Shown here piece after piece: positions 4,980 through 64,000 of a stretch of 64,000 nucleotides of DNA (position 1 is the stretch's first letter; each line of letters begins with the position of its first letter). Where the stretch lies: the NCBI GenBank assembly GCA_903870015.1, contig CAIQBE010000042.1:27443-91442 (forward strand), written 5' to 3'. The DNA is from an uncultured Thiotrichales bacterium (GTDB lineage Bacteria; Pseudomonadota; Gammaproteobacteria; Francisellales; CACEW01). The translations under genes were made by a program, and so were the position numbers. Below the pieces are notes generated by a model. It was not told the DNA's origin and ran no database searches. It saw nothing but the letters and a program-made list of their open reading frames with translations.

Positions 4980-4992
4980 AAGGACACAATCT

Positions 4993-17249: not shown

Positions 17250-17304
17250 GCCGTGATTATACCTAAAAAATCATGGCAGTTCACTGGCGCAGTCAGAGGT
17301 CAAT

Positions 17305-46469: not shown

Positions 46470-48029
46470 CTATTTTTCTTGCGCAGAACTCGCGGCGCCA
46501 GCTGATTTTAACAACACTAAAATCCAGGCCGTCAAGATAACGCCAATCGCTCCCATCACCCATAAGGTATCATGAAATGCTTTGTCATAACCTACAATGG
46601 CTTGCTGGGTCGCATATTGTTGCTGCGCGGCTAGACTGCCATTCCCAAAAGAACTTAAACTAACATTCACATGTCCTTCGGCAATCGCATTTAACCATGC
46701 GGAAAGATGTTCTGGTCCCACTAGTGATACACCTACTGATGACAAATGGGCGTACAAGGCGGAGGTAAAGACAGCTGCAAAAATGGTGATTGCAATCGCT
46801 TCACTGCCTAAGCGGAATGTATTTAATAATCCTGCTGCCATACCTGATTTTTCTGGCGCAATAATACCTAAGGCAATGCCATCTACCGTACCAAAAGATA
46901 ACCCCATCGCTATTCCGCCTGTTAACATAGGTAGTGCAAGACCTAACAGCGTGGAATCAGGATGAATGGTTTGTAAGGAGAAGATACTAAACAACATAAA
47001 GCCCATTGCAATCGAAATAATGGTTTTTGGTGTTAGCCCCATTTGAATCAATTTAGAGGACAAGAAAGGCAAGACGAAAACAGGTCCCGTTAATAACACA
47101 ATAGCGATACCGGCATCCACAGGACTAAATTGCAAAACACTCATAAAATAGATTGGCAAGTAGAGAATGATCGTAACATAGCAAAACGCCAATACTACGG
47201 GCACCATGGTCATAGCTAAAAATACACGCTCTTTTAAAATTTCTAAATGGAGCATGGGCGCAGAATAACGCTTTTCCCGGTAAACAAATAAGCCAAAAAT
47301 AACAACCACACCTGCTAAAATACCCATAATTGATTGACTAAACCCACCCCATTGCGATGATTGCACAATTGCAAACATCAGAGCAAATAAGCCGACCACA
47401 AATAAACCCGAGCCCAACCAATCAAAGCCAGCATTATGCGTTGGACGTACATGTTTTTCATTGAAAGTGAAACTGAGTGCTGTCACCAATAACAAACCAA
47501 TGGCGTGGGTATAAAATACTGACTGCCAACCAAATAGATGGAGCAAAATGCCCGCCATCGTGGGGCCAAATGCAACGCCTGCGCCTGCAACTGAACCAAA
47601 TAAGGCAAAAGCCCGAGTCAATGCATGGCCAGAAAAATTATTAGAGAGAATCGCAGGGCCACAAGCAAAAACAGCAGCGGCACCAATACCTGCAAACGCC
47701 CGAGCGACATCAAGCATATATCCGCCAGGTGCTAACCCAGATGCAATTGAGGCAACGGCAAACAGTAAGCACCCTGCTGTAAAGGTGCTCGCACGACCAA
47801 ATCGATCCGCTAATGCACCCCATAACAACGTAAAGCTTGCAAAGCATAAGTTAAAGGATGGCGCTACCCACTGCAAAGAGATAATATTAATATTACTCCC
47901 CAGCCCCTGACTAATGGCAGGTAAAATAATCCCTGTCCCAGCAAGGGCCATGGGTACGATAAAAACTGCCAGTAAAATCGTAAATAGCAGCAGGGTCTTC
48001 GATGATGTTTTTTCAGTACTTGCTTTCAT
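46470..48029 (-). CDS. MFS transporter, DHA2 (EmrB/QacA-like, 14-TM) type
   Basis: Start set at ATG 48029 (MKASTEK, AGGAGA RBS). About 14 TM segments. MFS motif A-like GALADRFGR. It is the last gene of the ACP/KAS III operon. Confidence 0.8.
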   Translation of the reverse strand: MKASTEKTSSKTLLLFTILLAVFIVPMALAGTGIILPAISQGLGSNINIISLQWVAPSFNLCFASFTLLWGALADRFGRASTFTAGCLLFAVASIASGLAPGGYMLDVARAFAGIGAAAVFACGPAILSNNFSGHALTRAFALFGSVAGAGVAFGPTMAGILLHLFGWQSVFYTHAIGLLLVTALSFTFNEKHVRPTHNAGFDWLGSGLFVVGLFALMFAIVQSSQWGGFSQSIMGILAGVVVIFGLFVYREKRYSAPMLHLEILKERVFLAMTMVPVVLAFCYVTIILYLPIYFMSVLQFSPVDAGIAIVLLTGPVFVLPFLSSKLIQMGLTPKTIISIAMGFMLFSIFSLQTIHPDSTLLGLALPMLTGGIAMGLSFGTVDGIALGIIAPEKSGMAAGLLNTFRLGSEAIAITIFAAVFTSALYAHLSSVGVSLVGPEHLSAWLNAIAEGHVNVSLSSFGNGSLAAQQQYATQQAIVGYDKAFHDTLWVMGAIGVILTAWILVLLKSAGAASSAQEK

Positions 48030-48085
48030 ATTTGTATCTCTCCTATCAAAAAGGTTAATGTAAAGTTTTATAATTCTCAATTATT

Positions 48086-48820
48086 TTAAAGCCACTCCCG
48101 CTCGCCGTCTCCGTGGGCCAGGCTTGTTCCATAATGGAGTTTTTCCACTCGCTCAATTTCTCTAAATGTTGCCGCAATATCTTCCTGAGCCAGCGCTAGC
48201 GCCTTATCAATGGACATCTGCTTTTCAAACCCATAAAGCTTAACAATTTTCTCTAATCGCTCTTCAATAGACCCTCCAATAATTGTATATTTAATATCAA
48301 GTTCGTTCAAGGTTTTGATAAGCAGCTCATCTGACAGCGCTCTAAATCTTTCAGAAACAGGACGATGCCCATCAGCCACTAAGGGAAACTCAATCGGCAA
48401 ATGAATGAATTCGCTGTAGGTGCTTTTGGCATAATCTCGTGCAATCGCACCAAAATTTACCATCATATCTTCAAAAAATAATACTGAATCTGTTCTTGGA
48501 ATATCAAAGTCCTGCCCTTCTTTAGGATGCATGCCTACACGCACCCGAACCATGCCATAGACCCACTCATGCAAGGCTGAACCATCAGAAACAAAAGTGC
48601 TTAAGTGACTCTCTTTGACAGACCGCTCCATAATGCGCCGTATCGACAAATGCATTAACTCCCCCGGAGAACAGCCTTCAAGTGTTTTGCCAGGCAGTGC
48701 TATGGGCAAGATTTCCCGCATGGTTTTTGCACGTGTTGCGGTAATGCCAACCAAGTGCGACAAGGCCAGTGTTGTTGTCGTTTTCCCACTAGAGTAGGTC
48801 CCTGATATTGCTAATTTCAT
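48086..48820 (-). CDS. P-loop ATPase (AAA_28/NadR-like)
   Basis: 244 aa. Walker A at the extreme N-terminus (ISGTYSSGKTTT). AAGGGA RBS. Confidence 0.65.
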   Translation of the reverse strand: MKLAISGTYSSGKTTTTLALSHLVGITATRAKTMREILPIALPGKTLEGCSPGELMHLSIRRIMERSVKESHLSTFVSDGSALHEWVYGMVRVRVGMHPKEGQDFDIPRTDSVLFFEDMMVNFGAIARDYAKSTYSEFIHLPIEFPLVADGHRPVSERFRALSDELLIKTLNELDIKYTIIGGSIEERLEKIVKLYGFEKQMSIDKALALAQEDIAATFREIERVEKLHYGTSLAHGDGEREWL

Positions 48821-48853
48821 AATGTTTTCCCTTTGTTTGTTAAAAAATAAGTT

Positions 48854-49825
48854 TTAATTAGGCAGCGCATGACCCAGCCCATAAAAAACCCTCATATCAC
48901 CCATAACTCCTTCGATATTGACACACCGCCAAGGAGCTCCCTCTATTAAAATCTGCTCACTTCTTATCACATTTATCGATGCCAATCCCCCATTACTTTT
49001 AGGAGTGTTATCTCTAGAGAAAGTCATCCCTCGCATCCATAATGTAGAACTATTAGCACGTGATATCCCATCTAATAGGTACAAATAACATTGCCCCAAC
49101 TGAGATAGCACTACCATCGCATCAATAGGTGATGCGCCTTGCCCTATTAAGGTCTCCATACCTTGATAGGCTGCACGCTCCGCGAAAGCACTCTCCACCT
49201 TAGCGGTCACTGAAGCGGCATCTAAATCAACATCCACTTCCGTAATGTTATGCGTCACATTCGCAAAACCCGTGCCATAAAAATTATTGGTTGGTTCACC
49301 TAAAATAGTATTGATCGTATCGTAGTGCAGCCCCTCTTTTGGAATGAGGTTTTGATGCTCTCTTAACGTGGGCAATTGCAGCTCGAGCACCACCACCATT
49401 CCACCTATATGACTTTCAAAAGAGACAACCGAACCTTCGGTTGTCAATAAAGTCGTAGTCGCTTTAAAATTCTCTAAATTTTCTAAAGGCTCCTTGCCTG
49501 CTTTCATGGTGAGTGAAACGATAGTGATTGCTTTACGCTTCAATGTCGTAAGCCCGCGTGATATGACACAATAAGCCTCGCTTAATTGCAGGGCAATTAA
49601 TGCTGCATCCACACTACTCAGATGCACTTTTTGATGGGTACTGCCCTTAGTCGACCAATTTTCAGGAATAGCCACACAACACATCGCCTCTGCTCCTGAT
49701 GCAGTTATCATTATTTCTTTGATTGTTCGCACGGCACGTTTATACCCATTAGAAAAAAAACGTGTACTCTTGTCCCCTAAAAAGTCATCAATATTCGCAA
49801 ATTTTGTACGCATCATAGTCCTCAT
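48854..49825 (-). CDS. hypothetical protein of the ACP/KAS III operon
   Basis: 323-aa ORF starting 6 nt after the KAS III gene. No motif I can name. Confidence 0.55.
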   Translation of the reverse strand: MRTMMRTKFANIDDFLGDKSTRFFSNGYKRAVRTIKEIMITASGAEAMCCVAIPENWSTKGSTHQKVHLSSVDAALIALQLSEAYCVISRGLTTLKRKAITIVSLTMKAGKEPLENLENFKATTTLLTTEGSVVSFESHIGGMVVVLELQLPTLREHQNLIPKEGLHYDTINTILGEPTNNFYGTGFANVTHNITEVDVDLDAASVTAKVESAFAERAAYQGMETLIGQGASPIDAMVVLSQLGQCYLYLLDGISRANSSTLWMRGMTFSRDNTPKSNGGLASINVIRSEQILIEGAPWRCVNIEGVMGDMRVFYGLGHALPN

Positions 49826-49831
49826 TAAAAG

Positions 49832-50824
49832 TTATATTTCAGTCACGCCCATTAATCGAGTCTCGCTCAAATTCATTGCCATACTGCCCCACGACAATCC
49901 CACACCAAATCCAGAGAGCACCACTTGCTCTTTGGTTTTGGCTGTAAAACTTTCGCGCTCATGGCATAAAGCCAAGGGAATAGAGGCGGGCCCCGTATTA
50001 CCATAATGCTTGACCGTAATCGGTACCTGCTCTTTACTAAGCGCTAATTTTTTACGTAAATAGTCGAGGATAAACTGATTGGCCTGGTGTAATGCAAAAA
50101 TACCCACTTCCTCTTTAGCCCAACCCATTTGCGCAAGCACGGAATTAATAGATAGAGGGACTTCACGTAAGGCAAACTCCATAATTTCAGAGCCATTCAT
50201 GTGCAGATAAGCATCTCCACCCTCTTTGGTTTTATCAATCATGAGGTGTTGAAAACCCGTGCCATCGGTCATGATATTAAAAGCGATATCATGGGTGCCT
50301 TGCTCTACAATGGTTGCCGCACCCCCATCACCAAATACTAACCGTACCTTTTGATCATCAGGATTAAGGTATTGGCTAATGGTATCGCCTACACAGATCA
50401 GCACCCGCTTGCAGCTGCCCGAATTAATCAATAGTGAAGCTTGATATAACCCATAAATATACCCAGAGCATCCATAATTAATATCAAGAGCAATGGCTGT
50501 TTTTGGGAGCTGCAACTTACCTTGTAAAATACAGCTTGTGGCCGGCATTTTATAATCGGGTGTTTGTGATACAAAAATAATGGCATCGACGGATTCAGGA
50601 GCTATTGCTAATGCTGCCATCAAATTTCGCGCCGCCTCTAGACAAAAATCAGATGCCTTTTGATGCGGTAAGGCAATGCCCACAGATTCAATACCCGTGC
50701 TCATCATGACCCGTTTAATTTCATTTAGACCAAACTTATCTTCAAGCGTTGTTAGATCTAATTTATTTTTAGGTATCACGGCAGAGATGCCTTTAATCGC
50801 CAAATTTTTGAGCCTAATGTTCAT
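49832..50824 (-). CDS. beta-ketoacyl-ACP synthase III (FabH-like)
   Basis: 330 aa. Cys-His-Asn triad contexts: NYGCSGYIYGL, ALHQANQFIL, HYGNTGPASIP. Confidence 0.88.
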   Translation of the reverse strand: MNIRLKNLAIKGISAVIPKNKLDLTTLEDKFGLNEIKRVMMSTGIESVGIALPHQKASDFCLEAARNLMAALAIAPESVDAIIFVSQTPDYKMPATSCILQGKLQLPKTAIALDINYGCSGYIYGLYQASLLINSGSCKRVLICVGDTISQYLNPDDQKVRLVFGDGGAATIVEQGTHDIAFNIMTDGTGFQHLMIDKTKEGGDAYLHMNGSEIMEFALREVPLSINSVLAQMGWAKEEVGIFALHQANQFILDYLRKKLALSKEQVPITVKHYGNTGPASIPLALCHERESFTAKTKEQVVLSGFGVGLSWGSMAMNLSETRLMGVTEI

Positions 50825-51072
50825 CCGTTCAGTCCTTTGGTTGCTAATCTCTGCTTAATGAGGTCAAAAATATCGCCTACTGTTTTACATTGTTCTACCT
50901 CAATTCCCTTCACCATGACTTGATAGTGACGATCAATCACTGCAATCGTTGAAACGATGGAAAGTGAGTCCCAGAGCTGCGCACCCTCAAGTAGAAACCC
51001 ATCCGTTAAGGTGTCAACCTTCACTGCTAACAGCTTTGCTAATTCTTGTAAATATTGTTGCTTTTCCATCAT
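50821..51072 (-). CDS. acyl carrier protein
   Basis: 83 aa with a phosphopantetheine attachment motif (WDSLSIVS). 4-nt overlap with the KAS III gene. Confidence 0.8.
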   Translation of the reverse strand: MMEKQQYLQELAKLLAVKVDTLTDGFLLEGAQLWDSLSIVSTIAVIDRHYQVMVKGIEVEQCKTVGDIFDLIKQRLATKGLNG

Positions 51073-51089
51073 ATACTCCCCTGTTTTAT

Positions 51090-52427
51090 TTATAGATTTC
51101 TCATTTTTTTAAAGCGCTGACCATGAAACGTGTGTTCAACAAATTCTATCTTTTGCGGAATCTTGTATGCGGGTAATTGCGTTCTACAAAAAAATATCAG
51201 CTTGGTTTTAAATTCTCCCGGATCAAAACCGCTTTTTACTCTTACTTTTACCGCAACGATATTTCCTAAAATGGCGTTGGGCTCACCGCTTACGACAGCA
51301 TCTTCAATGCCTTCCATTTTTAATAGCACATTTTCAATCTCACCGGGGTAGACTTTTTCTCCTCCGACATTGATAACATCACTTTTTCGGCCTAAAATTT
51401 TAATGTAGCCATCTTGCTCCATGACCATGTCACCGGTTTTAAACCAACCGTCTTCGGTATAGGGCGATGGCGCATTTAAATAGCCGAGCATGCCATTTTC
51501 CAACTTCACTTCTAACATTCCATCGTTGATCCGCACGCGCTCAGGATCCTCATCTAACTTGATAAATAAAGAATCTGATGCTTTTGATTTAGCCTTTAAA
51601 ACACCGATTTCTGAAAGACCATAAGCCTGAAAAAATCTAACCTCTGGGAAAGCAGCATTTAATCGATGCAGTAATGATTCTGGCATCGGCTCACTGCCAT
51701 AATTAACAATTTTCAATGAATGTAAGTCATACTTTTCATGTGCCTGACTTAATAACAATAAGTTTAAAAATGAGGGCGAGGTCACTAACACCTCAACTTT
51801 TTCCGCCTCAACTACCTTCGCAACTGCATCGGTTTCTCGTACCTCGGGAATAATGAGCGTCCCACCACTAAATAAATTACACAATATGGTATTAAAGCCC
51901 CCGATATGATCAAAGAGTAAAAAAGAAATCGTTCTAAATGCTGTTTTCTTTTCGCGAAAGTTCATGAGCAAGTTATTAAAATCATGGATGATGGCTTTGC
52001 TTTTGCCACTCGATCCCGATGACATGATGATTAGGCCCGGATGATTCTCTTTTCTTAAGCGCATGACTAAATCATGTTGGAGCCGATACTGTAGTGGCTC
52101 AATGGCAAATTGTGCATCATGAAAAGTAACGACATATTCTATGCCCACGATGGCCTGATACTCCTGCTGTTTTGCGGGAACTACATTGGTCATCGGCACA
52201 ATGATGCAGTTAGTATTGGCTAAAGCAAACAACATCGCTACCGAATAAGGTGAAAAATCAGCATTGATTTGGACAATAGCACCGGATGAGATCCCCTGAT
52301 TTTGTAGTGTTGCTTCATACTCAGCTATTTTTTTGCTAAGCCACGCATAAGAAAAGTGCTCTCCCTGGCTCACAATCGCCGTTTTATCAAATTGTTGAAA
52401 TCCTGCGATGAAAGTTTGCACGTTCAT
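51090..52427 (-). CDS. AMP-dependent synthetase/ligase (probably carrier-protein-loading)
   Basis: 445 aa with adenylate-forming motifs IIMSSGSSGKSKAI, YGLSE, FKTGD and a C-terminal GEKVYPGEIE. It is flanked by ACP genes. Confidence 0.85.
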   Translation of the reverse strand: MNVQTFIAGFQQFDKTAIVSQGEHFSYAWLSKKIAEYEATLQNQGISSGAIVQINADFSPYSVAMLFALANTNCIIVPMTNVVPAKQQEYQAIVGIEYVVTFHDAQFAIEPLQYRLQHDLVMRLRKENHPGLIIMSSGSSGKSKAIIHDFNNLLMNFREKKTAFRTISFLLFDHIGGFNTILCNLFSGGTLIIPEVRETDAVAKVVEAEKVEVLVTSPSFLNLLLLSQAHEKYDLHSLKIVNYGSEPMPESLLHRLNAAFPEVRFFQAYGLSEIGVLKAKSKASDSLFIKLDEDPERVRINDGMLEVKLENGMLGYLNAPSPYTEDGWFKTGDMVMEQDGYIKILGRKSDVINVGGEKVYPGEIENVLLKMEGIEDAVVSGEPNAILGNIVAVKVRVKSGFDPGEFKTKLIFFCRTQLPAYKIPQKIEFVEHTFHGQRFKKMRNL

Positions 52428-53128
52428 GAAACTCCTCCCAAATAAATATTTTGACCTGTGACAAAATCACTTTCTTTTTTGATGTAAAAATCAATTGTGT
52501 TGGCCACATCCTCAAAAGTTCCCATTCTTGGGATAGCCTGCCGGCTAATTAATCTCGACATTTTCTCTTTTGGGACCGAACGAATTAAATCCGTTTCAAT
52601 GGGCGTCGGACCGATGGCATTTACGGTAATTCCTAGGGCAGCTAATTCACGCGCCATGACTTCAGTCAAGGATTTAATCCCTGCTTTTGATGCCGCATAA
52701 ATAGCTTCACCCTCTAGCTTTAATGGCGTTGCGACCGTCGTGAAATTGATGATGCGGCCATAACGATGCTTTGACATTAGTTTTGAGGCTTCTCGGCAAA
52801 ACAAAAATGTACCCACAACATTCGTTCCTAAAATGTCATTTACCGTCGATAGTGGTGTGAGCGCGATATGATTCATCGATGCAATGCCCGCATTATTGAT
52901 AAGATTGTCTAATCGCCCATGGGTCTTACGAATATATGAAAAAATTTTCTTCACGGCAGATTCATCGGTCACATCGGCAATGAAATGTTGATATCCGACA
53001 AGCGACCAATCAATATCAGAGCGACTGCAACCAATCACAATGTGCCCTTGCCTCACATAATGCTCGACGAGATAGCGACCAATGCCTTTGCGTGTACCAG
53101 TAATGAGTGTGATGGGCTTCTTAGTCAT
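52424..53128 (-). CDS. short-chain dehydrogenase/reductase (FabG-like)
   Basis: Start at ATG 53128 (MTKKPITLITG). TGxxxGIG cofactor motif (TGTRKGIG), NNAG, and catalytic YAASKAG. Confidence 0.88.
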   Translation of the reverse strand: MTKKPITLITGTRKGIGRYLVEHYVRQGHIVIGCSRSDIDWSLVGYQHFIADVTDESAVKKIFSYIRKTHGRLDNLINNAGIASMNHIALTPLSTVNDILGTNVVGTFLFCREASKLMSKHRYGRIINFTTVATPLKLEGEAIYAASKAGIKSLTEVMARELAALGITVNAIGPTPIETDLIRSVPKEKMSRLISRQAIPRMGTFEDVANTIDFYIKKESDFVTGQNIYLGGVS

Positions 53129-53426
53129 GATGATTGCCCTCAACTAGCGTTTGCAAATAGCTGGATAATGTACCTATGGTTAAGAAGGGGCTATTACGTT
53201 GTGACATGGCTTTTTCATTGGCAAGAATGATCGACACCCCAAACTGATCCTCAATTTTTTGCTCAACATTCACAATCAGTGAAACTAATGAGATAGAATC
53301 TAATACCCCGTGTTTACCATAGATGGGGGCATCACCTCCAAACTCTGTATTTATTGGCGTGTCTAAGGTTTGGTTTAACTCATTAATTGCGTCGATGACG
53401 ACTTGACTATACTCATTGGCTAACAT
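53121..53426 (-). CDS. acyl carrier protein
   Basis: 101 aa with a phosphopantetheine attachment motif (GVLDSISLVS). It is the first gene of the operon. Confidence 0.8.
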   Translation of the reverse strand: MLANEYSQVVIDAINELNQTLDTPINTEFGGDAPIYGKHGVLDSISLVSLIVNVEQKIEDQFGVSIILANEKAMSQRNSPFLTIGTLSSYLQTLVEGNHHD

Positions 53427-53702: not shown

Positions 53703-54380
53703 ATGATTATCTTGAACTTAAAAAAATGGACCACTAGTGAAATTTTAAAAAATTTCATGTTTAAGAAAAATCTCAAATCAGCTGAGTTGGCTCGTCTGAC
53801 CGGCCTTCCCCAACCTACTGTCCATCGTATTGTTGAGGGAGATAGCATCCGACCCCATAGAGACTCCTTAGAGGCCCTGGCAAAATTCTTTAATATTACC
53901 GTTCCACAACTCCAAGGCATTGACCCTATTGAAGAACTAGAGGTTACAGTTGCAAACCCCATGCCAGAGGGCTGGCGAAAAATTCCAGTCTATAACTGGG
54001 ATAATGTAGTTAGCTTTGCTAAATCAAATAAAAGTGAAATCCAAACAGGTCGCGCTGAAACCCTTACTAATGCCGACGTTAATGATGCAGGCTTTCTTAT
54101 TGAGCTTACTGATGAATCGATGTACCCACAGTTTCCCGCAGGAACCGAAATCATTGTAAATACTGAATATGAGCCCATGGATCGTGAAATGGTTGTTGTA
54201 TATTTAAAACACCTTGATAAAGCATTTTTCAGAATGATATTATTTAATGGTGCTGAGCGCTTTGTGCGCCCGCTGAACCCTGATCTTATGCCCATTGGTG
54301 TCGTAAAACTTAACTTAGAGGAAGATATTGTTGTTGGCGTTTTTATTGAAGAGCGAAAAAAATCAAGACGTAGTGTATAA
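53703..54380 (+). CDS. XRE-HTH / S24 peptidase-fold repressor (LexA/CI-like)
   Basis: N-terminal HTH (LKSAELARLTGLPQPTVHRIVEG). The C-terminal S24-like fold has DESMYP (Ser region) and ...RPLNPD. The expected Ala-Gly site and catalytic Lys appear substituted. Confidence 0.75.
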   Translation: MIILNLKKWTTSEILKNFMFKKNLKSAELARLTGLPQPTVHRIVEGDSIRPHRDSLEALAKFFNITVPQLQGIDPIEELEVTVANPMPEGWRKIPVYNWDNVVSFAKSNKSEIQTGRAETLTNADVNDAGFLIELTDESMYPQFPAGTEIIVNTEYEPMDREMVVVYLKHLDKAFFRMILFNGAERFVRPLNPDLMPIGVVKLNLEEDIVVGVFIEERKKSRRSV

Positions 54381-54413
54381 TTATTGCAAATAGAAAGACC
54401 GGAGTTCTTACAT

Positions 54414-54902
54414 ATGAAAGATTCAAAAAAAATAAGTGATTACATCAAATGGATGATTGAAGCCTATGCAGAATTACGTGCTGAACAAGCAACGCATGTT
54501 ACTCACCGCGTTGTAGAATCTCATAAAAATGAAAAAGGCGAACATCAAGTTTCAGTTCAAATCACTGGAAAAAGCCTTGTATTTAAAGCATCACCCAAAG
54601 AAATTATGGCCGACGATAACTTATTAGAATCTTTTTCTCGAAAAGATATTCGCTTGCTCACCTACCTTGCCTGCGAGGATATCAAGGAACCCACCCATGA
54701 AATACTAGAGCAAAAATTTATTCGTAATATGAACAAATTTTTCTTTAAACTCAAGCACGGCAAGACCGGCGAAGAAATGGAAAAATCTGCCGAGGAAATT
54801 TCAACCAACCCTGAACTGATTAAATCCCTCAGTCCTGAAGATGCCCATAAGATTGGCTATGTTACTGCAAACCAAATGATCAAGAGCGAAAGCAAAGCAT
54901 GA
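54414..54902 (+). CDS. hypothetical protein
   Basis: 162 aa from ATG 54414 (GGAG RBS). Charged and soluble, with no recognised domain. Its stop overlaps the start of the YhhQ-like gene (ATGA). Confidence 0.5.
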   Translation: MKDSKKISDYIKWMIEAYAELRAEQATHVTHRVVESHKNEKGEHQVSVQITGKSLVFKASPKEIMADDNLLESFSRKDIRLLTYLACEDIKEPTHEILEQKFIRNMNKFFFKLKHGKTGEEMEKSAEEISTNPELIKSLSPEDAHKIGYVTANQMIKSESKA

Positions 54903-55597
54903 TCTCCAAAAAAAATGTGGCTTCTAACACATTTCTCGTCCTTGCAATGCTTTTTCTGGCCCTCATTCTTCTTACCCACACATTTGCAAATAAAGAGTTA
55001 CTCTACCCCCTGGGAGGAATTAGCTCCCCTGGGATGTTGACTTTTCCGCTTGCCTTTATGGTTTTAGATATTATTGCAGAGATCTATGGCTTTCACACCG
55101 CCAAACAAGTTATTTGGGCTACACTTGCAATCAGTGGATTTTTCTTTTTTGCCGGCGCTATGATGGCCTACTTCCCTGACCCAAACAATATTCCCAATTT
55201 GATTCCTGGACAATACTACCAAGCTATTTTTGGAATCTTACCCAGAGTTTATATCGCAACCTTCATTGGCATGCTCCTAGGCTCTACAGTGAATGCAAAA
55301 CTCCTTTCAAAATGGAGAATATTACTAAAAGGTAAATATTTTTGGGCAAGAAGCTTAGGCGCATCTGCAATAGGCGATTTCATCTTTATCTTTGTTGGAA
55401 CTTTTTTAATCTGCCTGGAACGATTTCCATTTTACATAATCTTAAAGTTTTCCCTTACCGCGTACCTCATTGAAATTTGTGCACTCATTATTCTTGCCCC
55501 ATTTGCCAGCATTGTTACCTCCCTAATAAAACTGATACTGAGAGATAAAGCTAGCTCTTTACAGATTGAGTACAACCCTTTCAGTCTTGAAAACTAA
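54899..55597 (+). CDS. YhhQ/VUT-family (queuosine-precursor-type) transporter, paralog A
   Basis: 232 aa with about 6 TM segments. The signature region FPLAFMVLDIIAEIYGFHTAKQVIW resembles YhhQ (DUF165/Vut_1). Confidence 0.7.
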   Translation: MISKKNVASNTFLVLAMLFLALILLTHTFANKELLYPLGGISSPGMLTFPLAFMVLDIIAEIYGFHTAKQVIWATLAISGFFFFAGAMMAYFPDPNNIPNLIPGQYYQAIFGILPRVYIATFIGMLLGSTVNAKLLSKWRILLKGKYFWARSLGASAIGDFIFIFVGTFLICLERFPFYIILKFSLTAYLIEICALIILAPFASIVTSLIKLILRDKASSLQIEYNPFSLEN

Positions 55598-56280
55598 GCT
55601 TTTTGTAAAAAAGGATTGGCAATTTCCTCAGATGCAATAACTCGTGTGCAATCTGTTTTTTTCAGAACAAAAACTACGATATTTGCAGGAAATGACAATA
55701 AGATATTGATAGTGGCTTTCAAAGCAATACCCCAAAAAATCATGGAAACAAGTTCGCCTTGAAATGTAGTCCCATATAGCATAATGGCGAACCCTAAACT
55801 GGTAAAAATAATCTCTCCAATCATCGATGCACCAATACTTCTTAACCAAAAATAGCGTCCTTTCAGCAACACCTTCCACTTTGTCACCAAGCGGATATTT
55901 AAAAAGCCTCCGATAAAAAAACCCACAAAAGTTGCCAAAAATAACTTCAACAATGGCCCAAAAATCATTTCATAATCAGACTCACCGTGCCACGTTAAGG
56001 GCGAAGGAAAATGAATTAAAAGCACTAAAATCAAGGCCACAATAAAATCGACTACCAACATGCAATAAAACATGTTTTTTGCCGCCTTATAACCATATAA
56101 CTCTGCAATGATATCACTTAAGATAAACCAAAATGGCGAGATAAAAGATCCTGCCGATGCCACACTATGACCCATTGAAATAGGCTTATACACAAGCAAT
56201 TCTGCACACAACCCAAGAGCAACATATAACATACTAAAAAACACTAAACACCTAAATTGATTGTCTTTGATCATCACCAA
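55594..56280 (-). CDS. YhhQ/VUT-family transporter, paralog B
   Basis: 228 aa with the same signature (SPFWFILSDIIAELYGYKAAKNMFY). Convergent with paralog A, with a 4-nt overlap. Confidence 0.7.
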   Translation of the reverse strand: MVMIKDNQFRCLVFFSMLYVALGLCAELLVYKPISMGHSVASAGSFISPFWFILSDIIAELYGYKAAKNMFYCMLVVDFIVALILVLLIHFPSPLTWHGESDYEMIFGPLLKLFLATFVGFFIGGFLNIRLVTKWKVLLKGRYFWLRSIGASMIGEIIFTSLGFAIMLYGTTFQGELVSMIFWGIALKATINILLSFPANIVVFVLKKTDCTRVIASEEIANPFLQKA

Positions 56281-56354: not shown

Positions 56355-57278
56355 ATGTCTCATGGCCCCGAGGCCCCTCAGTACCTGCACTCTTATGGTG
56401 ACGCAACCGACCTTGGTGAACTTGAGGTCGAACGGTTACGACTACTTAACACTGCCTATAGCCCAACGGCACATGCGATGCTTGCGCCTCATTTAAAGCC
56501 AGGAATGGAAGTATTAGAGCTAGGTGTGGGGACAGGTGAAATTGGTAGCTGGTTAGCCGAAAAGGTTGGTGCAGAGGGTAAATACATTGCCATAGATAAA
56601 GATCCGCAACAACTAGCAAAAGCAGCGCGCCTCATTCATGGCTCTCAAGTGCACCTTATTGCTGCAGATGCTCTACGCCTCAGCGATTCCGCAGAATTTT
56701 CTGCCCAGCGACCTGCAGAAGGCTTTAATCTTGTCTATTGTCGCTGGTTCCTCTGCCACATTACAGAAGCCCAACGCACAAAATTAATTCAACATATTAT
56801 GTCACTGCTCGCTCCCAACGGTGTATTTATCTGTGAAGAGCCTGACTATCGAAATATGCGCCTGAAGGAAAGAGGCGCCATAACCCCTAGCCCAGCGATA
56901 GATAGCTGGAAAGATATTGTTAAAGGCTTGCAAGCAAAGCCTAGCTTAGGCCTTGATTTAGAAATGGATGATAGCAAATTGACGGCTGAATTACAGAAAG
57001 CCATTTTAGGGCATGCCGGTTATCATGCTGAAATTATCTGTCGGTTTGAGGCCGAATTAACTAATGGCCAGAAACATGCTTTGGTTCTAGGAATACAAAC
57101 TGCTGCCAAAGCAATTCTTTCTCTTGGAAAAGCACCAGCAGATGTTGATACTTTGTTGTCCCAACTTCGAATCATAGAGAGCAATCCCGATCAAAGTGTT
57201 GTATTTTATACTAATACTTTTGCCAAACTAACGAGATCGGTAGACTCGATGACTGCAGCACTCCCCTTACCTACCTAA
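56355..57278 (+). CDS. class I SAM-dependent methyltransferase
   Basis: 307 aa with motif I VLELGVGTGEIG and an acidic post-I residue (AIDKD). Its 3' end overlaps the NRPS 3' end by 12 nt, convergently. Confidence 0.8.
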   Translation: MSHGPEAPQYLHSYGDATDLGELEVERLRLLNTAYSPTAHAMLAPHLKPGMEVLELGVGTGEIGSWLAEKVGAEGKYIAIDKDPQQLAKAARLIHGSQVHLIAADALRLSDSAEFSAQRPAEGFNLVYCRWFLCHITEAQRTKLIQHIMSLLAPNGVFICEEPDYRNMRLKERGAITPSPAIDSWKDIVKGLQAKPSLGLDLEMDDSKLTAELQKAILGHAGYHAEIICRFEAELTNGQKHALVLGIQTAAKAILSLGKAPADVDTLLSQLRIIESNPDQSVVFYTNTFAKLTRSVDSMTAALPLPT

Positions 57279-60200
57279 GGTAGCTTCGTGTAAAAACTTA
57301 GCTTGTTCAGCAATACTATGCCGAGATAGTAGATCAGACATTTTTATGACATACCCAAGTTCGATTATTTTACTGAACAGCCTAATATAAAGCATAGAAT
57401 CTCCACCCAAATCAAAAAAACTATCTGTGGGCTGGATTTCATCGATCCCCAGTAGCTCATGCCATATATCCATTAATTTCGCCTGAATCTCTACGTGATT
57501 GGCACTGACTATAGATTGGCTTGGCAATAATACCTCAGAAAGTACCGGTTGATCGACTAAAGATGAAATAGCTACGTCAGCATCTGCCTCTATGACCTGA
57601 TTAATATCTAACAACATCGGTACAAAATTTTCTTGTCGACTCACACAACAAAGAAACTGTTCAGGTCGCCCAGGGTGAAGCACCATAAAAGCCTGTAAAC
57701 CCATTTTTTGTATTTCATCATGTAGCACCGTGAGATCGCCCCCCTCCTCCATGCTATAGAGCCGTGTATTTGTCAGACCGGTAATAATCAAACTGCCTTG
57801 GACAAAAGGAAGCTGCGACATAAGCCACTCCCTTAATTGACTTAATGAGCTCCATTGTGCCCCTTTAAATACAATAGGGGGCCCTCGATCCGCTTCAACC
57901 TTATTGGCTTTTGGCAATACATGCAAGGTTGCAGTATATCTAAAATCTCGTAACTCATTACTAAAATGCATTAGTTTCGGTTCAAAGAGTGGCACCAGAC
58001 TGAACGATGCTTTTTGAATAATTTGCATAATAAACCGAGGGCTCACAAACAATTCTTTTTCAAGCAAATGGTAATCATTTAATTGCTTGCAATCATTCAC
58101 GCCCTGCGCACATTTGGCTTGCCGTACATACTCATAAAAACAACCTTGCCAGTCTGCGTGCCGCAAGTCACCCAAAATAATTCGCCCTCCCTGAGGGTTC
58201 AGCAAAGCAATTGCTTGCTCCAATACTAATTCAAAATATTCAAGACTCGGAAAATATTGCACCACAGAATTCAGTATAATAGTGTCAAATGTCCCGGGTA
58301 GAATATTAAGTTCATCTGCGGCTAATACCTTAAACTGCGTGTCTTTATCTTGATACGTCGAGGCCAGTTTTTCGATCACCGCTGCTGAAAGATCAACTCC
58401 TAAATATTGGATATATTTTTTTTCCAAGGCCTTCATCACCTGACCTGTACCGCAACCAACTTCAAGCACACGCCCCAATGGCTCCCTTTTTATTTTTGCA
58501 GCAATATCATGCAGCCAATCCTGCATGACCTCAGATGAAAATGGGTGACCATCTACACTATTATTCCACCCCAACCAGGGCTGCATATTCAGATCTGAAA
58601 CCCCATGATATAAATCATCATAAATTGCGCTCCAGTACGCCAGAACTCCTTCATTTTTTTGATTTTGAGCTGAGCTTAGAGACAACAAGACCCTTTCAAA
58701 TGCATTGACAAGCCCAGAGGCATTTTCCCTAGAAAATACGTCCTGAGAGAAAATAAATGTTAAATCTGCCTCATCCTCTGACCACGCTACCTGCAGTTCT
58801 AGATCAAAACGAGCCATTCCATAATCAAGCTGCACCGCCTGAAAGCCCCTCCCATCTTCTGCCCCCCGATCAAAGGCATTAAATACAAACTGTGACAGCG
58901 GCTGAGCATCGGTTAAAAGAGTTGCCCCTACTGCTGATGCAATCTTTGCGAAAGGGATATCACGATACTCCAAGATCATAGTGCTTTTTCTTTTGATTTC
59001 GGCAATCCAATGTTCGGGACTCCACCTATCTGTTTTATGGCGTTGTAGTGCCAGCACTCCAAAATTAATAAATAGTCCTATACAATCCTGCTCTTCTTCT
59101 CCACGCAAAGAAATGGGCAATGCAATTTGCAAATGATCTTCATTGATAAAAGCAAAAAGCACTTTTGCAAAGGCGGCAAGCAAAACTGTATTTGCTGTTG
59201 CAGAAGACTGGGCAGCAAGCTTTTTGAGCGCTACCAATAAGTCTTTATTTAAATGCAATCTTTGCTGAAACCCCTTAAAGGAACGCACCAATGGGGGTTG
59301 TAACGATGAGCGCAAAGTATTTTTTAAACGCTGCAACCCCATTACCTCAATATAATTTTTAACACTTTTCGGATCCACCTCATCATCTACTGCATTTTTT
59401 ACATATTCGAGATAGCTCTTAGGAGCCGATGGAAGTACTCCATGTCTCAACCAATGCTTGAGACGACTTAATAAATTGAGCAAACTGCGCCCATCTGTAA
59501 TAATATGATGCAATACAAGCTGCACATACAGCGAATCAGAAAACGAATGAACTACTACCCTTAGCAAAGGAGGCTCTGTTAAATTGAAAGGAGGGTCAAT
59601 AAACTCTCTCAGGGCACCTAAGAATAAGGCATCATTTGCAATATTTTCCGGCGCCGAATGAGCATATTTTTTTAGCTGAACATGAGGCATTTCCGCCCCC
59701 ACTTTCTGCACAACGCCATGGTTTTCTTCAAAAAACCCAATCCTGAAAAAAGGCTCATTTTTCAGAATTAAATCTAATCCCTGAACCACACTCTCATCAG
59801 AGGTCGGCCATAAAACCTGATATAAAAATGCATCATGATAACATACCGCCTCTGGGAAAAACCGGCTAAATACCCAAATCCCCTTTTGCATGGCAGACAG
59901 AGGAAGGGGCTCTTTATCTAAATTTATCTGCTGCGTAGACTCAACTTCTGGTCGCTCGGTAATAGCTTTTTCTCGAATAATATGTAGCAAATCATCAAAC
60001 CACGGCTGATTTAAAAACTGGGTCAAGGATACTTTAACCCCCAATACCTCATTAACTTTACTGAGCAATTCAATTGCTCGCAAAGAGTGCCCACCATTTT
60101 CAAAAAACGACAAACTCAAATCGATTTGCTCACGCCGTAGAACCTTACACCATATTAATAAAATTTTTTGCACCAAAGGATCTCCTTGATCTGGTTGATG

Positions 60201-63200
60201 CAATGTCATTACTGGGGAGGTGCTTTCCTTATACAATAGCTTCAGCGCCTGAAAATCAATTTTGCCATTCGCCGTCAGCGGCATTTCATTCAGAAAAATA
60301 AAGTGGCTAGGGAGCATCACCGGGGGTAACTCTTTACTCAAAATATGGCGTAGCTCATTAAGATCACAAGATTCTCGACAAAACTCCTGCGGAATCATTG
60401 CCTGTAATTGCGCAATTTGTTCTACTCCCTCTAAAATATTGGCTTCGGGCATGCCAAAATCAATCAGCGAGGCAATTTCGGTAACCCCCGCTTCTTGTAA
60501 CTTTACTGCAAATTCCGCACACTGCTGGGGTGTACCGATTAAACACTTCTGCTCAATAAAGCGCTCTACTAAATTTTCAAAATAGGCTTCTGACAATGTA
60601 TTTCCAATATCTGAACTTGCTTCATTTTGTATTTTTGTTAAAAGACGCATATGGGCGCGAAAATACTCTTGCAATGGCTTTTTTACCTCTTCACGAGCCA
60701 CGCCTGACTCAGGATGAATATACGTATGCACCATCAATGTTACATGCTTTTGCAAAGGATCAAATCCATGCTCAGTCAAGTTTTGGCGATATACCCGTAG
60801 TTTTTTCGCTAGAGCATCCAAATCCTGAATCAAAAGATGCGTTAAAATATTTAAGCCTAAACGCCCGGCCTCTGCGAACACCTCTACATCATCAGCAACG
60901 GTGAGCCACAAGGGGCACCCTGCTTGGGTTGGCCTCGGATACACTGAGAGTGAACGCAGTTCATCTGCCCCGTTTTTACCCTCATACACCCCATGAGCCC
61001 AGATATTTTTAAGTATTTTTAACTTTTCAAACATCACTTGCTTTCTGTCTTGATATTGCTCTGGGGCAAAAATAAAATCATTTGGATGCCAACCTGATGC
61101 AATAGATAGACGCACTCGTCCATTATAGAGGCAATCTAATGTCGCCCATTGCTCTGCAACGATAACGGGATGATGTAAAGGCAAAACCACACTTCCCGCA
61201 CCTAAAACCAGATTTTCTGTTATTGCCGCCAATGCCGCAGTTACGACTGCAGGCGTAGAAAAAACAGCACCCATTGGATCAAAATGACGCTCTGGTGTCC
61301 ACATGCCATACAGACCCGCTTGATCGGCTTTCTTCGCCAACAACTTATAAAAATCAAAGTTATTTTTTTGTGGGGCTTCAACTTCTGGAAAGCAAAAAAG
61401 ACTCATTCGCATTGAATGTGCTTTTTTCTTTTTAACCTGCAAGTATGCTACCAAACTTTGTGAGTCACTTGGAGCAGTCATCACCACAGCACTTTCAACA
61501 AGTCCTGTTGCACAAAGTACATTTTCAATCTCAACAGGATCTAGACGCTGCCCTCTTAACTTTAACTGCCGATCCTGCCGCCCTACAAAATAAATACGTC
61601 CTTCTGGACTAATCCATGCCTTGTCACCAGTTTTATAGACTCTAACTGTTTTATCGGATGAAATCGCTAGGCTGACAAAAGATTGTGTGGTTTGGATAGA
61701 ATCTAAATAACCCTCTGCTAGCGCCGCACCTCCAATACAAAGTTCGCCCTTCACACCATGAGGCAAAATCTGGTTGAACTGATTGACCACAACACAAAAG
61801 CAATTGGCGAGTGGGCGCCCAACATGAATAGGCTCATTGAAATTAAGCTGTGCTAGAGTAGCCCAAATCGTTGCCTCTGTTGGTCCATATAGATTTATCA
61901 CTTTCTTTTGCCTAGCTGATAGGCGTTGAAATAACTCTAAAGGCAGCGCCTCACCTCCTACCAATAAAATACGGAAAGAACTAAGCGGCAAGCCTTCATC
62001 CAAAAATAACTTCCAACGTGAAGGAGTCGTTTGCAAAAAAGTAGGTTGATGCTTGTGCACAAGCGCTTGCAGGCGCATAAAATCAGCAATGACTGCATCA
62101 CTTGGAAGCAAAAGCGTGCTGCCAGCACAAAGAGGCGCAAGCACTTCTAACAATAAAATATCAAAAGTTGTCTGCGTTACCGACAACCAAATATCATCGC
62201 TACAAACTTTCAGTTCATCAGACAGAGCAGTAATATTATTATTCAGTGCTGAGCGAGGGACTGCGACACCCTTTCCCTGCCCAGTACTCCCAGAAGTAAA
62301 GAGAATATAAGCAATAGAGCCTGGAAGATGATCATTATTGATAAAGCTAACGCCTTGACTGCTTGCAAAAATCTCAGGATAAACATGAAAACGTACGCCA
62401 CTAATCGGATTAATGTGGTCCTGCGCCAATAAGATGTCATGACAATCTGCCTCATGCAATCTTTTGTGCAAGCGTATATCCGGCCAGTCAAGCCCCAATG
62501 GCATGAATGGAATCCCTGCGGTCAAACAAGCCAAAATTGTGACAACCCATGCACCCCCCCGAGGCAGAAAAACCCCTAGAGCAGTGTGGATATTTTGGCT
62601 TTTTAAATATATAGCAAGGTTTTGAACTTGCTCTGATAATTGCTGATACGTCCACTCTTGCGCATCAGTGATACAAGCCAATCTTTGTGGATTTTTTTGA
62701 ACTTGTCTCTGAAAACAGCTTATTATATCTAGCGGTTGCGGAGTGCTTTTCCCATAAATAATTGCCCAACTCTGCTCGTTCTCTAAATTAAAAAGTCTAA
62801 AATCTTTCAATAGTCGATGAGGATTATTTAGCGCCTGTTCGATGATAGAATGATAAGCAGATACGATAAGAGGCCATATTTCTGTAGGCAGCTCCGTAGG
62901 GCGAAACTTTAAACATAACTCCATTTTAATAGGATCAAATTGTATCGTGAGTGGAAAATCCGTAATTTGATCATAATCTACTTGCACTAATGCTGGCACC
63001 CCAAAAAAATCTGGCCTCCGAAAACTCAACGCGGTAAATACAGAGTCAAAATACCCTGCAATATTCATACCACTTGACTGAGTAATTTCAAGCAAACTAC
63101 TGATATCATGTTTCATCAAACTTTGAATGTTTTGCTTAATCTGCCTCATCCAATCTGCAAAAGAGCGCTCAGGATCTACTGTAACAATAAGAGGTAATGT

Positions 63201-64000
63201 ATTAATAAAACAACCTGTTGCGTTATTCCATTCTATCGGTAGCTTATTTTTACCAGAATAAACCAAACCCGATACAACCGTAGTTTGATTTAACCATGAG
63301 GCAAGGAGCAAACTCCAACAACCCTGAAGCAATGCAGTCGCAGATACCTTGTAAGTTTTAGAAAACTCTTGTATCTGTGCGCACTCAAGCTCACTCATCT
63401 GAATAAAAAAGGATTGGGACACCCCGTCTTGTAGTTCAGATCCCGTGATTAGCGAGGCCTCTTCCAGACCGATTAATTGCTGCCTCCAAAAAGCCTGATG
63501 CTCTTTCATATCGTAATCAACACGAAAATTTAGAAACTCAGCAATTGACTGCTGCGAAGTCATAGATGCTTTCTGCTGTTGTTCAATTTCGTGATAAATT
63601 TGATGCAATCGATTCACCACGGGAGTTAAACTTCCCGCATCAAACAAGAGATGGCTGTAGAAGAAATGAATTTTGTCCTGCTCATTAGGCAAATGAAAAT
63701 GTTCGATATATAAAGCTCTTGGCTGAAAAGGATTCAAGCCTTGATTCATGACCCGCTCTTTTCTAGCGATTAACCATAAGTCAATTTGACTTTTCTCATA
63801 CCTAGACCAATCAAAATAGGCAAAAGGAACCGTAAACGGCTGATGTAGCATGACACTAATCGACTCAGCTGAATCAATTTTTTTGAAAGACTGCCGTAAT
63901 ACATCAAACTCACTAACGAGCTGCTGACAAGCACGCTCTAAAATAATGCGATTTAAACTTTGCTGATAATGCAAAGTAATTGCAATTGTGTAAGTGCCTC
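57267..64000 (-). CDS. nonribosomal peptide synthetase, 5'-truncated by the window: (C)-A[LLM monooxygenase insert]-T-C-MT-x-T
   Basis: The frame stays open to base 64000 (GTYTIAIT precedes the listed start).
- A domain motifs: LFTSGSTGQGKGV, NLYGPTE, YKTGD, GRQDRQLKLRGQRLDPVEIE, NGKID.
- LLM domain: MSLFCFPE...WTPERHF...GSVVLPLHHP...SIASGWHPNDF.
- T1: GGHSL.
- C2: HHIITDGRS.
- MT: VLEVGCGTG.
- T2: GGDSM. Confidence 0.9.
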   Translation of the reverse strand, partial: GTYTIAITLHYQQSLNRIILERACQQLVSEFDVLRQSFKKIDSAESISVMLHQPFTVPFAYFDWSRYEKSQIDLWLIARKERVMNQGLNPFQPRALYIEHFHLPNEQDKIHFFYSHLLFDAGSLTPVVNRLHQIYHEIEQQQKASMTSQQSIAEFLNFRVDYDMKEHQAFWRQQLIGLEEASLITGSELQDGVSQSFFIQMSELECAQIQEFSKTYKVSATALLQGCWSLLLASWLNQTTVVSGLVYSGKNKLPIEWNNATGCFINTLPLIVTVDPERSFADWMRQIKQNIQSLMKHDISSLLEITQSSGMNIAGYFDSVFTALSFRRPDFFGVPALVQVDYDQITDFPLTIQFDPIKMELCLKFRPTELPTEIWPLIVSAYHSIIEQALNNPHRLLKDFRLFNLENEQSWAIIYGKSTPQPLDIISCFQRQVQKNPQRLACITDAQEWTYQQLSEQVQNLAIYLKSQNIHTALGVFLPRGGAWVVTILACLTAGIPFMPLGLDWPDIRLHKRLHEADCHDILLAQDHINPISGVRFHVYPEIFASSQGVSFINNDHLPGSIAYILFTSGSTGQGKGVAVPRSALNNNITALSDELKVCSDDIWLSVTQTTFDILLLEVLAPLCAGSTLLLPSDAVIADFMRLQALVHKHQPTFLQTTPSRWKLFLDEGLPLSSFRILLVGGEALPLELFQRLSARQKKVINLYGPTEATIWATLAQLNFNEPIHVGRPLANCFCVVVNQFNQILPHGVKGELCIGGAALAEGYLDSIQTTQSFVSLAISSDKTVRVYKTGDKAWISPEGRIYFVGRQDRQLKLRGQRLDPVEIENVLCATGLVESAVVMTAPSDSQSLVAYLQVKKKKAHSMRMSLFCFPEVEAPQKNNFDFYKLLAKKADQAGLYGMWTPERHFDPMGAVFSTPAVVTAALAAITENLVLGAGSVVLPLHHPVIVAEQWATLDCLYNGRVRLSIASGWHPNDFIFAPEQYQDRKQVMFEKLKILKNIWAHGVYEGKNGADELRSLSVYPRPTQAGCPLWLTVADDVEVFAEAGRLGLNILTHLLIQDLDALAKKLRVYRQNLTEHGFDPLQKHVTLMVHTYIHPESGVAREEVKKPLQEYFRAHMRLLTKIQNEASSDIGNTLSEAYFENLVERFIEQKCLIGTPQQCAEFAVKLQEAGVTEIASLIDFGMPEANILEGVEQIAQLQAMIPQEFCRESCDLNELRHILSKELPPVMLPSHFIFLNEMPLTANGKIDFQALKLLYKESTSPVMTLHQPDQGDPLVQKILLIWCKVLRREQIDLSLSFFENGGHSLRAIELLSKVNEVLGVKVSLTQFLNQPWFDDLLHIIREKAITERPEVESTQQINLDKEPLPLSAMQKGIWVFSRFFPEAVCYHDAFLYQVLWPTSDESVVQGLDLILKNEPFFRIGFFEENHGVVQKVGAEMPHVQLKKYAHSAPENIANDALFLGALREFIDPPFNLTEPPLLRVVVHSFSDSLYVQLVLHHIITDGRSLLNLLSRLKHWLRHGVLPSAPKSYLEYVKNAVDDEVDPKSVKNYIEVMGLQRLKNTLRSSLQPPLVRSFKGFQQRLHLNKDLLVALKKLAAQSSATANTVLLAAFAKVLFAFINEDHLQIALPISLRGEEEQDCIGLFINFGVLALQRHKTDRWSPEHWIAEIKRKSTMILEYRDIPFAKIASAVGATLLTDAQPLSQFVFNAFDRGAEDGRGFQAVQLDYGMARFDLELQVAWSEDEADLTFIFSQDVFSRENASGLVNAFERVLLSLSSAQNQKNEGVLAYWSAIYDDLYHGVSDLNMQPWLGWNNSVDGHPFSSEVMQDWLHDIAAKIKREPLGRVLEVGCGTGQVMKALEKKYIQYLGVDLSAAVIEKLASTYQDKDTQFKVLAADELNILPGTFDTIILNSVVQYFPSLEYFELVLEQAIALLNPQGGRIILGDLRHADWQGCFYEYVRQAKCAQGVNDCKQLNDYHLLEKELFVSPRFIMQIIQKASFSLVPLFEPKLMHFSNELRDFRYTATLHVLPKANKVEADRGPPIVFKGAQWSSLSQLREWLMSQLPFVQGSLIITGLTNTRLYSMEEGGDLTVLHDEIQKMGLQAFMVLHPGRPEQFLCCVSRQENFVPMLLDINQVIEADADVAISSLVDQPVLSEVLLPSQSIVSANHVEIQAKLMDIWHELLGIDEIQPTDSFFDLGGDSMLYIRLFSKIIELGYVIKMSDLLSRHSIAEQAKFLHEATLGR

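Follow-up and report, generated by a model that had tools for sequence, protein, structure and literature searches.

Flavin-dependent monooxygenase (MOx) domains embedded in the adenylation (A) domains of nonribosomal peptide synthetases (NRPSs) have been described at two positions. In the myxothiazol and melithiazol lines the domain lies between core motifs a4 and a5; in SolF of the solanimycin line of Dickeya solani it lies between a8 and a9 of a glycine-activating internal module, and alpha-hydroxyglycine is retained in solanimycin B (PMC10204066). Here we describe an NRPS gene at the end of a 64,000-nucleotide stretch of DNA (hereafter the window) from an uncultured Thiotrichales bacterium (contig CAIQBE010000042.1, positions 27,443 to 91,442), in which an A domain, A2, contains an FMN-dependent luciferase-like monooxygenase (LLM) domain. 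There is very little doubt that A2 is a glycine-type A domain interrupted by the LLM domain between a8 and a9. An earlier note on this stretch implied that such a layout was new. This does not hold, since the a8–a9 glycine layout already has a characterized precedent in SolF and the arrangement is abundant in databases.

The likeness to SolF should be described first. Module 4 of SolF has a glycine code, an oxygenase at a8–a9, an internal position, and further condensation downstream, all of which are found in A2, although the comparison is with the published description of SolF only and is one of architecture, not of orthology. SolF belongs to a large polyketide synthase (PKS)/NRPS line producing a polyene-hexapeptide, whereas the present enzyme is a two-carrier NRPS with a carrier-less Cys-type A domain and an end composed of condensation (C), N-methyltransferase (nMT), and carrier (T) domains. 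With the NCBIfam model of SolG, the neighbor of SolF, the window protein scores 271.7, far below the cutoff of 2200. MtaG and MelG of the myxothiazol and melithiazol lines resemble A2 in that an FMN monooxygenase from the same family is embedded in their glycine A domain, and alpha-hydroxylation of the glycyl unit leading to a terminal amide, which the earlier note had cited as the precedent, is confirmed for them by the literature. However, their oxygenase is inserted at a4–a5 in a terminal C-A(MOx)-T module ending in a thioesterase (TE), and the hydroxylated unit is cleaved; in A2 the insert is not at a4–a5, and the domain is internal, being followed by T-C-MT-T (MT, methyltransferase) and not by T-TE.

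Three further systems resemble the locus in part. A MOx domain within a glycine A domain occurs in 38 corallorazine-like (crz-like) clusters of Serratia and Pseudomonas (PMC11342130). These clusters also encode small lipodipeptide-type NRPSs of Gammaproteobacteria with an N-methyltransferase in line, but they have a starter C domain, a serine module, and a module-1 carrier of their own, and the insertion point of their MOx domain is unstated. The Ox domain of PuwE (PDB 6KET) is likewise an assembly-line domain credited with hydroxylation alpha to a thioester, in the 2-hydroxylation of puwainaphycin; it is not contained in an A domain but separates PKS from NRPS modules, and it acts on a beta-amino fatty acyl chain. 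In TioS A4-M4 (PDB 5WMM) a guest occupies the a8–a9 loop as in A2, and its M domain is the one most similar to the MT domain of the window protein, but the guest is a methyltransferase, not an oxygenase.

The NRPS gene is an uninterrupted reading frame on the minus strand, running from the window edge at 64000 to a stop codon at 57267-57269. The domains were placed by Pfam and NCBIfam profile searches of the translation, in which residue 1 of the window part corresponds to nt 63998, and are as follows.

62739-64000, minus strand: condensation domain C1, truncated at the window edge (Pfam Condensation, residues ~5-420)
61419-62714, minus strand: N-terminal part of adenylation domain A2 with motifs A1-A8 (Pfam AMP-binding, 1.4e-62, residues 429-765; TIGR01733, 2.4e-90, residues 450-839)
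60363-61427, minus strand: 355-residue insert relative to GrsA, between A8 and A9 (residues 858-1212; BLASTP versus GrsA)
60405-61403, minus strand: LLM FMN-dependent monooxygenase domain (TIGR04020; Pfam Bac_luciferase, 1.2e-48, residues 863-1173; PDB 6KET)
60249-60404, minus strand: C-terminal part of A2 with A9 (LPPVMLPSHF) and A10 (NGKID, containing the Lys517 equivalent) (Pfam AMP-binding_C model positions 43-76, residues 1213-1246)
60000-60170, minus strand: carrier domain T1, FFENGGHSL (residues 1277-1333; Pfam PP-binding and Ser motif)
58656-59906, minus strand: condensation domain C2 with an intact HHIITDG motif (residues 1365-1781; Pfam Condensation)
57906-58634, minus strand: class I methyltransferase domain of the NRPS backbone N-methyltransferase type (residues about 1820-1947; Pfam Methyltransf_12/23/25)
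57291-57518, minus strand: terminal carrier T2, FFDLGGDSM (Ser motif, with the gene end just downstream)

The whole interrupted A2 thus spans 60249-62714. No TE, reductase (R), or terminal C domain was found in the Pfam and NCBIfam scan of the translation to the stop codon. The MT domain has no adenylation domain around it, and its best PDB match is the M domain of the interrupted A domain of TioS (5WMM, 5e-21). Two antisense open reading frames (ORFs) on the plus strand, 60262-60585 (107 aa) and 60596-60904 (102 aa), lie within the LLM/A9 coding region; with the minus-strand gene so strongly supported, they are most likely spurious.

The point of insertion was defined by BLASTP against GrsA-PheA, the numbering of which agreed with the published positions. 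The alignment of A2 is continuous to GrsA 480 and restarts at GrsA 484. The insert is preceded by A8 (GRQDRQLKLRGQRLDPVEIE) and followed by A9 and A10, and neither an A9- nor an A10-like motif is found upstream of it in the translation or in the GrsA alignment. Because both motifs are present only beyond the insert, A2 is genuinely interrupted rather than an intact A domain with a pseudo-subdomain, a distinction that has been raised for ketoreductase 'interruptions' (PMC8341866). The C-terminal part of A2 aligns with GrsA 484-519 at 61% identity, with an AMP-binding_C match limited to the last 34 model positions. The guest domain is also complete, covering positions 2-340 of the 341 of the TIGR04020 model and aligning with PuwE over 313 residues. 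The A core of TioS aligns with the query to chain residue 482 and its M domain begins by residue 501, and by this alignment the insert occupies the same a8–a9 loop as the TioS methyltransferase.

These results agree largely with the earlier note, which had read from the sequence an A domain interrupted by an LLM domain at nt ~60395-61406 and followed by T-C-MT-T. The AMP-binding, TIGR04020, and AMP-binding_C matches lie in one frame, the extent of the LLM domain is reproduced closely, the downstream order is that of the Pfam domains and motifs, and all the peptide strings quoted are present in the translation. The insertion had been placed between A8 and A10; the position is right and is narrowed here to A8–A9 by the break at GrsA 480/484. 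The statement that the MtaG/MelG oxygenase is located between A4 and A5, and the conclusion that the present insert differs from it in position, are both supported (PMC10204066).

The specificity code of A2 is DILQLGLIWK. In the GrsA register, Asp235, Ile236, and Leu239 come from FDILLLE, Leu299 and Gly301 from ILLVGGE, Leu322, Ile330, and Trp331 from NLYGPTEATIW, and Lys517 from NGKID, while Gln278 is located at an ungapped offset of +43 from Asp235. Nine of the ten residues (DILQLGLIW) are therefore in the N-terminal part of A2 according to the GrsA alignment and code mapping. An independent position mapping by phmmer returned the same ten residues. The code proposed previously is thus retained, and the formal alignment, which might have given another specificity, leaves it glycine-type. 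Glycine codes vary mainly at positions 299, 322, and 330, and DILQLGMIWK is present in all MOX-bearing glycine domains examined (PMC12283262); DILQLGVI is linked to the glycine unit of nocamycin (PMC5466765). A literature search with the full string DILQLGLIWK found no paper, and 'DILQLG' leads to these two. Judged by this DILQLGxIWK-type Stachelhaus code, A2 is predicted to be a glycine-activating domain. The top PDB match of the A2 core, LgrA module 2, also activates glycine, but it was rejected as support for the specificity, as its code residues differ (roughly DIANLCIIYK).

The LLM domain matches TIGR04020, the model of MupA/Atu3671 natural-product LLMs, with 358.9 bits (E 2.5e-107, residues 866-1198) versus a curated cutoff of 244.45; this profile search had been proposed as a check on the insert, which scores clearly above the cutoff. 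Among solved structures, the Ox domain of PuwE comes closest (6KET, 2e-73 over 313 residues). The W-x-P-E-R-H-F stretch and ~60 further LLM columns are invariant across the nine members of the NRPS family described below (34-57% identity). The LLM domain is also the best conserved domain of the protein, with 61, 55, and 58% identity to the relatives P0002, P0003, and P0121, respectively, versus 38-47% for the C domains. On this pattern of conservation, the LLM domain is very likely active.

To survey the distribution of such domains, the A8-LLM-A10 stretch was searched exhaustively with HMMER against 1.84 billion representatives of clusters at 50% identity, giving 3490 matches below 1e-30. Domains were mapped in the best 150 of these and in three close homologues, giving 152 LLM domains. 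The LLM domain follows a complete A core (A8–A9 type) in 64 and splits the A core near position 205-215 of 432 (A4–A5 type, as in MtaG) in 77, the remaining 11 being in other positions. Both types are found at protein ends (T or T-TE) and internally in multi-module proteins. The nearest neighbor of an LLM domain is of the same type in 59 of 65 cases for A8–A9 and in all 79 for A4–A5. Glycine-type codes are present in every A4–A5-type host (77/77) and in about 48 of the 64 A8–A9-type hosts, 12 of which have exactly DILQLGLIWK. The other ~16 have codes such as VDWVVSLADK-like ones, DAMHVGGLA, DPRHFGF..., and DLYNMSMIWK. These hosts (representatives P0121-P0268) contrast with the report that all MOX modules are in glycine domains (PMC12283262).

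Among the matches listed, contiguous A8-LLM-A9 stretches also occur in Cellvibrio mixtus, Burkholderia ubonensis, Rheinheimera soli, and Sphingomonas gei. No Dickeya locus is among the best 80 loci listed in a profile search of genome contigs with a family alignment, in which the top locus listed is 42% identical. A homologue search with the junction region yielded short LLM fragments for the most part, without a protein named SolF or one assigned to Serratia or Pseudomonas. The A8-LLM-A9 NRPS architecture is not mentioned in two surveys of Legionella biosynthetic gene clusters. Separately, a 424-kb contig of a Pseudomonadota metagenome-assembled genome (JAZKIV010000011.1) has at least four separate A8-LLM-A9 matches (L002, L003, L005, and L014), which suggests giant synthetases with several hydroxylating modules.

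The reaction most readily assigned to the module begins with activation of glycine by A2 and its loading onto T1. The LLM domain would then place a hydroxyl group on the alpha-carbon of the glycyl unit bound to T1, at the expense of FMNH2 and O2. The site of oxidation is deduced from the precedents of PuwE, SolF, and MtaG, and by this analogy the LLM domain probably hydroxylates the glycine alpha-carbon. It is highly improbable that the domain instead acts elsewhere or not at all, i.e., that it S-oxygenates a cysteine-derived unit, performs Baeyer-Villiger-type chemistry, or is a structural relic. Members of the LLM family in PKS lines have indeed been proposed for hydroxylation or for Baeyer-Villiger chain shortening, and the non-glycine codes of some A8–A9-type hosts are in line with other substrates. 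These readings, however, are disfavored by the full-length match above the cutoff, by catalytic-region motifs that are invariant among such divergent relatives, by an LLM domain conserved above all others, by the strong association with glycine codes, and by the thioester-alpha position being the target in all NRPS precedents.

The modules upstream of the window, the recovery of which had been suggested earlier, were found in a full protein, P0001 (2913 aa), which is 100% identical to the window NRPS over the shared part. Its N-terminal addition consists of ~140 residues resembling the tail of a C domain, followed by a further A domain, A1 (P0001 residues ~125-625; residues 1-670 correspond to 1603-3612 of locus L001). 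The domains are arranged as A1(Cys-type)-C1-A2(Gly,LLM)-T1-C2-MT-T2; there are two carriers, and TE, R, and terminal C domains are all absent. The code of A1, DLFNLSLIWK, is one residue off the cysteine code DLYNLSLIWK of five relatives. No carrier motif is found in the 45 residues between A10 of A1 (NGKIDFKCL) and the start of C1. C1 has SHLLFDA in place of HHxxxDG, whereas C2 has HHIITDG. A decaying relic was considered for C1 and rejected, since its identity between relatives is equal to that of C2; from this conservation, C1 probably has an acyl donor.

The core A(Cys)-...-A(Gly,LLM)-T-C-MT-T is common to nine proteins, which form a small orphan family in uncultured Gammaproteobacteria, with the cysteine-type code of A1 kept in all nine. 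P0148, P0160, and P0264, which branch deeply, have an N-terminal formyltransferase (F) domain, a carrier after A1, an intact C1 HHxxxDG motif (FHAILDG in P0148), and an extra E-like end domain. The end domain carries H-N-x-V-x-D-G-V-S-W, an epimerization (E)-like motif with the second His replaced. In P0001, P0002, P0003, and P0212 the carrier after A1 (T0) is lost and A1 is kept; C1 reads SH/NH...D/E-A in the first three, and in C1 of P0212 nothing resembling HHxxxDG was found. In P0121 and P0126, C1 is deleted, A1 is kept, and a stand-alone formyltransferase gene follows the NRPS gene directly. These two genes are located as follows.

Locus L083, 10272-11693: stand-alone formyltransferase gene
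P0126 locus, 17141-18295: stand-alone formyltransferase gene

No formyltransferase gene was seen in the 14 kb around the window NRPS gene. The formyltransferase gene or fused F domain in relatives indicates an N-capped glycine or an N-capped upstream residue. We infer that a fused F domain, an F protein in trans, or C1 with a donor serves the same end, which is consistent with a requirement for N-acylation of the glycine and with a carbinolamide as the product. The glycyl unit would most likely be N-capped before hydroxylation.

The N-terminal end of the chain is where oxidative deamination enters. If the glycine were N-terminal with a free amine, the hemiaminal would shed ammonia and C2 would transfer a glyoxylyl (alpha-oxoacyl) group to the T2 residue. 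Unacylated alpha-hydroxyglycine is unstable, as standard chemistry has it; moreover, there is no carrier before C1, the C1 motif is SHLLFDA, and C1 is absent altogether in P0121 and P0126. The same two relatives nevertheless have the formyltransferase gene after the NRPS gene and the deep-branching ones have the fused F domain, and in proteins of the window type C1 is conserved as much as C2, suggesting that acyl delivery persists. Deamination is therefore considered quite unlikely.

The fate of the hydroxyl group depends on the steps after T1. Since C2 and T2 are intact and conserved, the hydroxylated unit would be passed on to C2, as in SolF, rather than cleaved in the manner of MtaG. Both the timing of hydroxylation and the retention of the hydroxyl group are deduced in this way; by analogy with SolF, the chance that the hydroxyl group is retained and handed on is judged to be about even. 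The retention of alpha-hydroxyglycine in a non-terminal module, one of the outcomes raised in the earlier note, is accordingly the reading best supported here, by the SolF precedent and the intact C2. Taken jointly, glycine activation, alpha-hydroxylation by the LLM domain, and hand-on by C2 are slightly favored.

MtaG/MelG-type oxidative cleavage would have the opposite outcome: the carbinolamide would collapse to free a primary amide and leave glyoxylyl-S-T1, as the off-loading step of a TE-less enzyme. This is the accepted role of glycine A-MOx modules in myxothiazol and melithiazol, TE, R, and terminal C domains, which could release a product, are all missing from the present NRPS, and truncated linear products are expected from MOx-bearing crz-like clusters by the authors of the corallorazine study (PMC11342130). 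Unlike MtaG, however, the enzyme has no TE to remove the glyoxylate from T1. All nine family members keep C2, MT, and T2 intact and conserved, and these domains would serve no purpose for a chain released at T1. With T0 absent, there is no sign of an upstream chain bound to a carrier, and SolF shows that an internal a8–a9 module is able to keep the hydroxyl group. Cleavage is thus unlikely.

With the hydroxyl group retained, C2 would join the unit to the residue on T2. The simplest reading is that A1 loads T2, since A1 remains intact despite the loss of its carrier and an A domain is always missing from the last module; the MT domain would N-methylate that residue, and C2 would form an (N-capped) alpha-hydroxyglycyl-N-methyl-cysteinyl thioester. 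The pairing of A1 with T2 is tentative. In yersiniabactin HMWP2/HMWP1, one cysteine A domain similarly serves several carriers, including that of an A-less Cy-MT-PCP module (Cy, heterocyclization; PCP, peptidyl carrier protein); there the Cy domains are heterocyclizing and the line ends in a TE, whereas C2 is an ordinary HHxxxDG C domain. In the family members, T0 and T2 carry GGDS(I/M) and T1 carries GGHSL; the former is the carrier signature usually seen before E domains. How a product could leave T2 may be envisaged as a minimal TE-less off-loading, in which the carrier-less Cys A domain serves the remote C-nMT-T module and the LLM-derived hydroxyl group, or addition of the thiol to an N-acyliminium, closes a six-membered ring (morpholine-2,5-dione or thiomorpholinone) and releases the product. 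N-methylation would favor the cis-amide for such a closure, which is very unlikely on present evidence.

Several observations weigh against glycine activation followed by hydroxylation and hand-on. No flavin reductase partner was identified, and the nine-member family is known from sequence alone. The presence of non-glycine codes in ~16 of the 64 A8–A9-type hosts means that the LLM domain is not strictly bound to glycine chemistry. Were hydroxylation to occur while the glycine amine is still free, loss of ammonia from the hemiaminal would give glyoxylyl-S-T1. C1 has SHLLFDA and no upstream carrier, yet is conserved like C2, and the A1-T2 pairing is reached only by elimination. Finally, BLASTP places a gap of one residue just before position 278, with which this position would read Thr, not Gln; Thr was rejected because the ungapped register reproduces the glycine codes in the literature.

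The genes next to the NRPS gene in the window are as follows.

56355-57278, plus strand: stand-alone class I S-adenosylmethionine (SAM) methyltransferase, 307 aa, convergent with the NRPS gene and overlapping its 3' end
55594-56280, minus strand: Vut_1 (queuosine-precursor-transporter family) gene (TIGR00697, 1.2e-22)
54899-55597, plus strand: Vut_1 gene of the same family (TIGR00697, 1.9e-16)
54384-54902, plus strand: 172-aa protein without a family match
53703-54380, plus strand: helix-turn-helix (HTH)/peptidase S24 repressor

A Vut_1 gene adjoins the NRPS gene in all eight family loci read. Most of the eight also have a class I methyltransferase of ~300 aa, an HTH/S24 repressor accompanied by a protein of ~150-180 aa, and a major facilitator superfamily (MFS) transporter. 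The stand-alone methyltransferase was not seen at the P0160 locus, nor the pair of S24 repressor and 172-aa-type partner at the P0002 and P0148 loci; the MFS gene of the window cluster is located beyond base 64000. IcmQ and a CBU_0585/lpg0581-family gene at the P0002 locus place this relative in Legionellales. At 806-1429 of locus L086, a peptide deformylase gene adjoins Vut_1 and the gene of the formyltransferase-bearing P0160, and could be a processing or self-protection gene.

Farther from the NRPS gene, a set on the minus strand at 46470-53143 encodes an MFS DHA2 efflux pump, an AAA_28 protein, an AvrD-family protein (PF05655, 3.6e-57), a KAS III (beta-ketoacyl-acyl carrier protein synthase III), a weak PP-binding protein of 83 aa (50821-51072), an AMP-ligase of 445 aa, and a short-chain dehydrogenase/reductase (SDR)/FabG-like reductase. 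This set may produce a syringolide/butenolide-like lipid or supply C1 with its acyl donor. Elsewhere the window consists of ordinary chromosomal genes, with those for MetRS, RuvB, TolB, RecJ, DnaG, TopA, and DprA. The closest relatives of this TopA share 72-97% identity with it, and the best matches from named organisms, Aquicella and Thiolapillus, are at 66%. The window also encodes, all on the plus strand, a 1181-aa Phage_GPD/VgrG-like protein (37294-40839), a DabA-type inorganic-carbon transporter subunit (4867-7176) preceded by a 446-aa ORF (3639-4979), and an AMP-binding protein of 714 aa whose N-terminal 240 residues belong to no known family (17970-20114).

A2 is one more example of a documented and common class, and the moderately unusual part is the NRPS family around it. 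LLM-interrupted A domains have two about equally common architectures, a4–a5 and a8–a9, each terminal and internal, and the a8–a9 type is not strictly bound to glycine. The family is compact and conserved and is non-colinear: one A domain lacks a carrier, one module lacks an A domain, and a release domain is missing altogether. Being small, it lends itself to the study of what decides between retention and cleavage of alpha-hydroxyglycine. If the off-loading by ring closure were true, these uncultured Legionellales-like bacteria would produce a new class of small heterocyclic metabolites.

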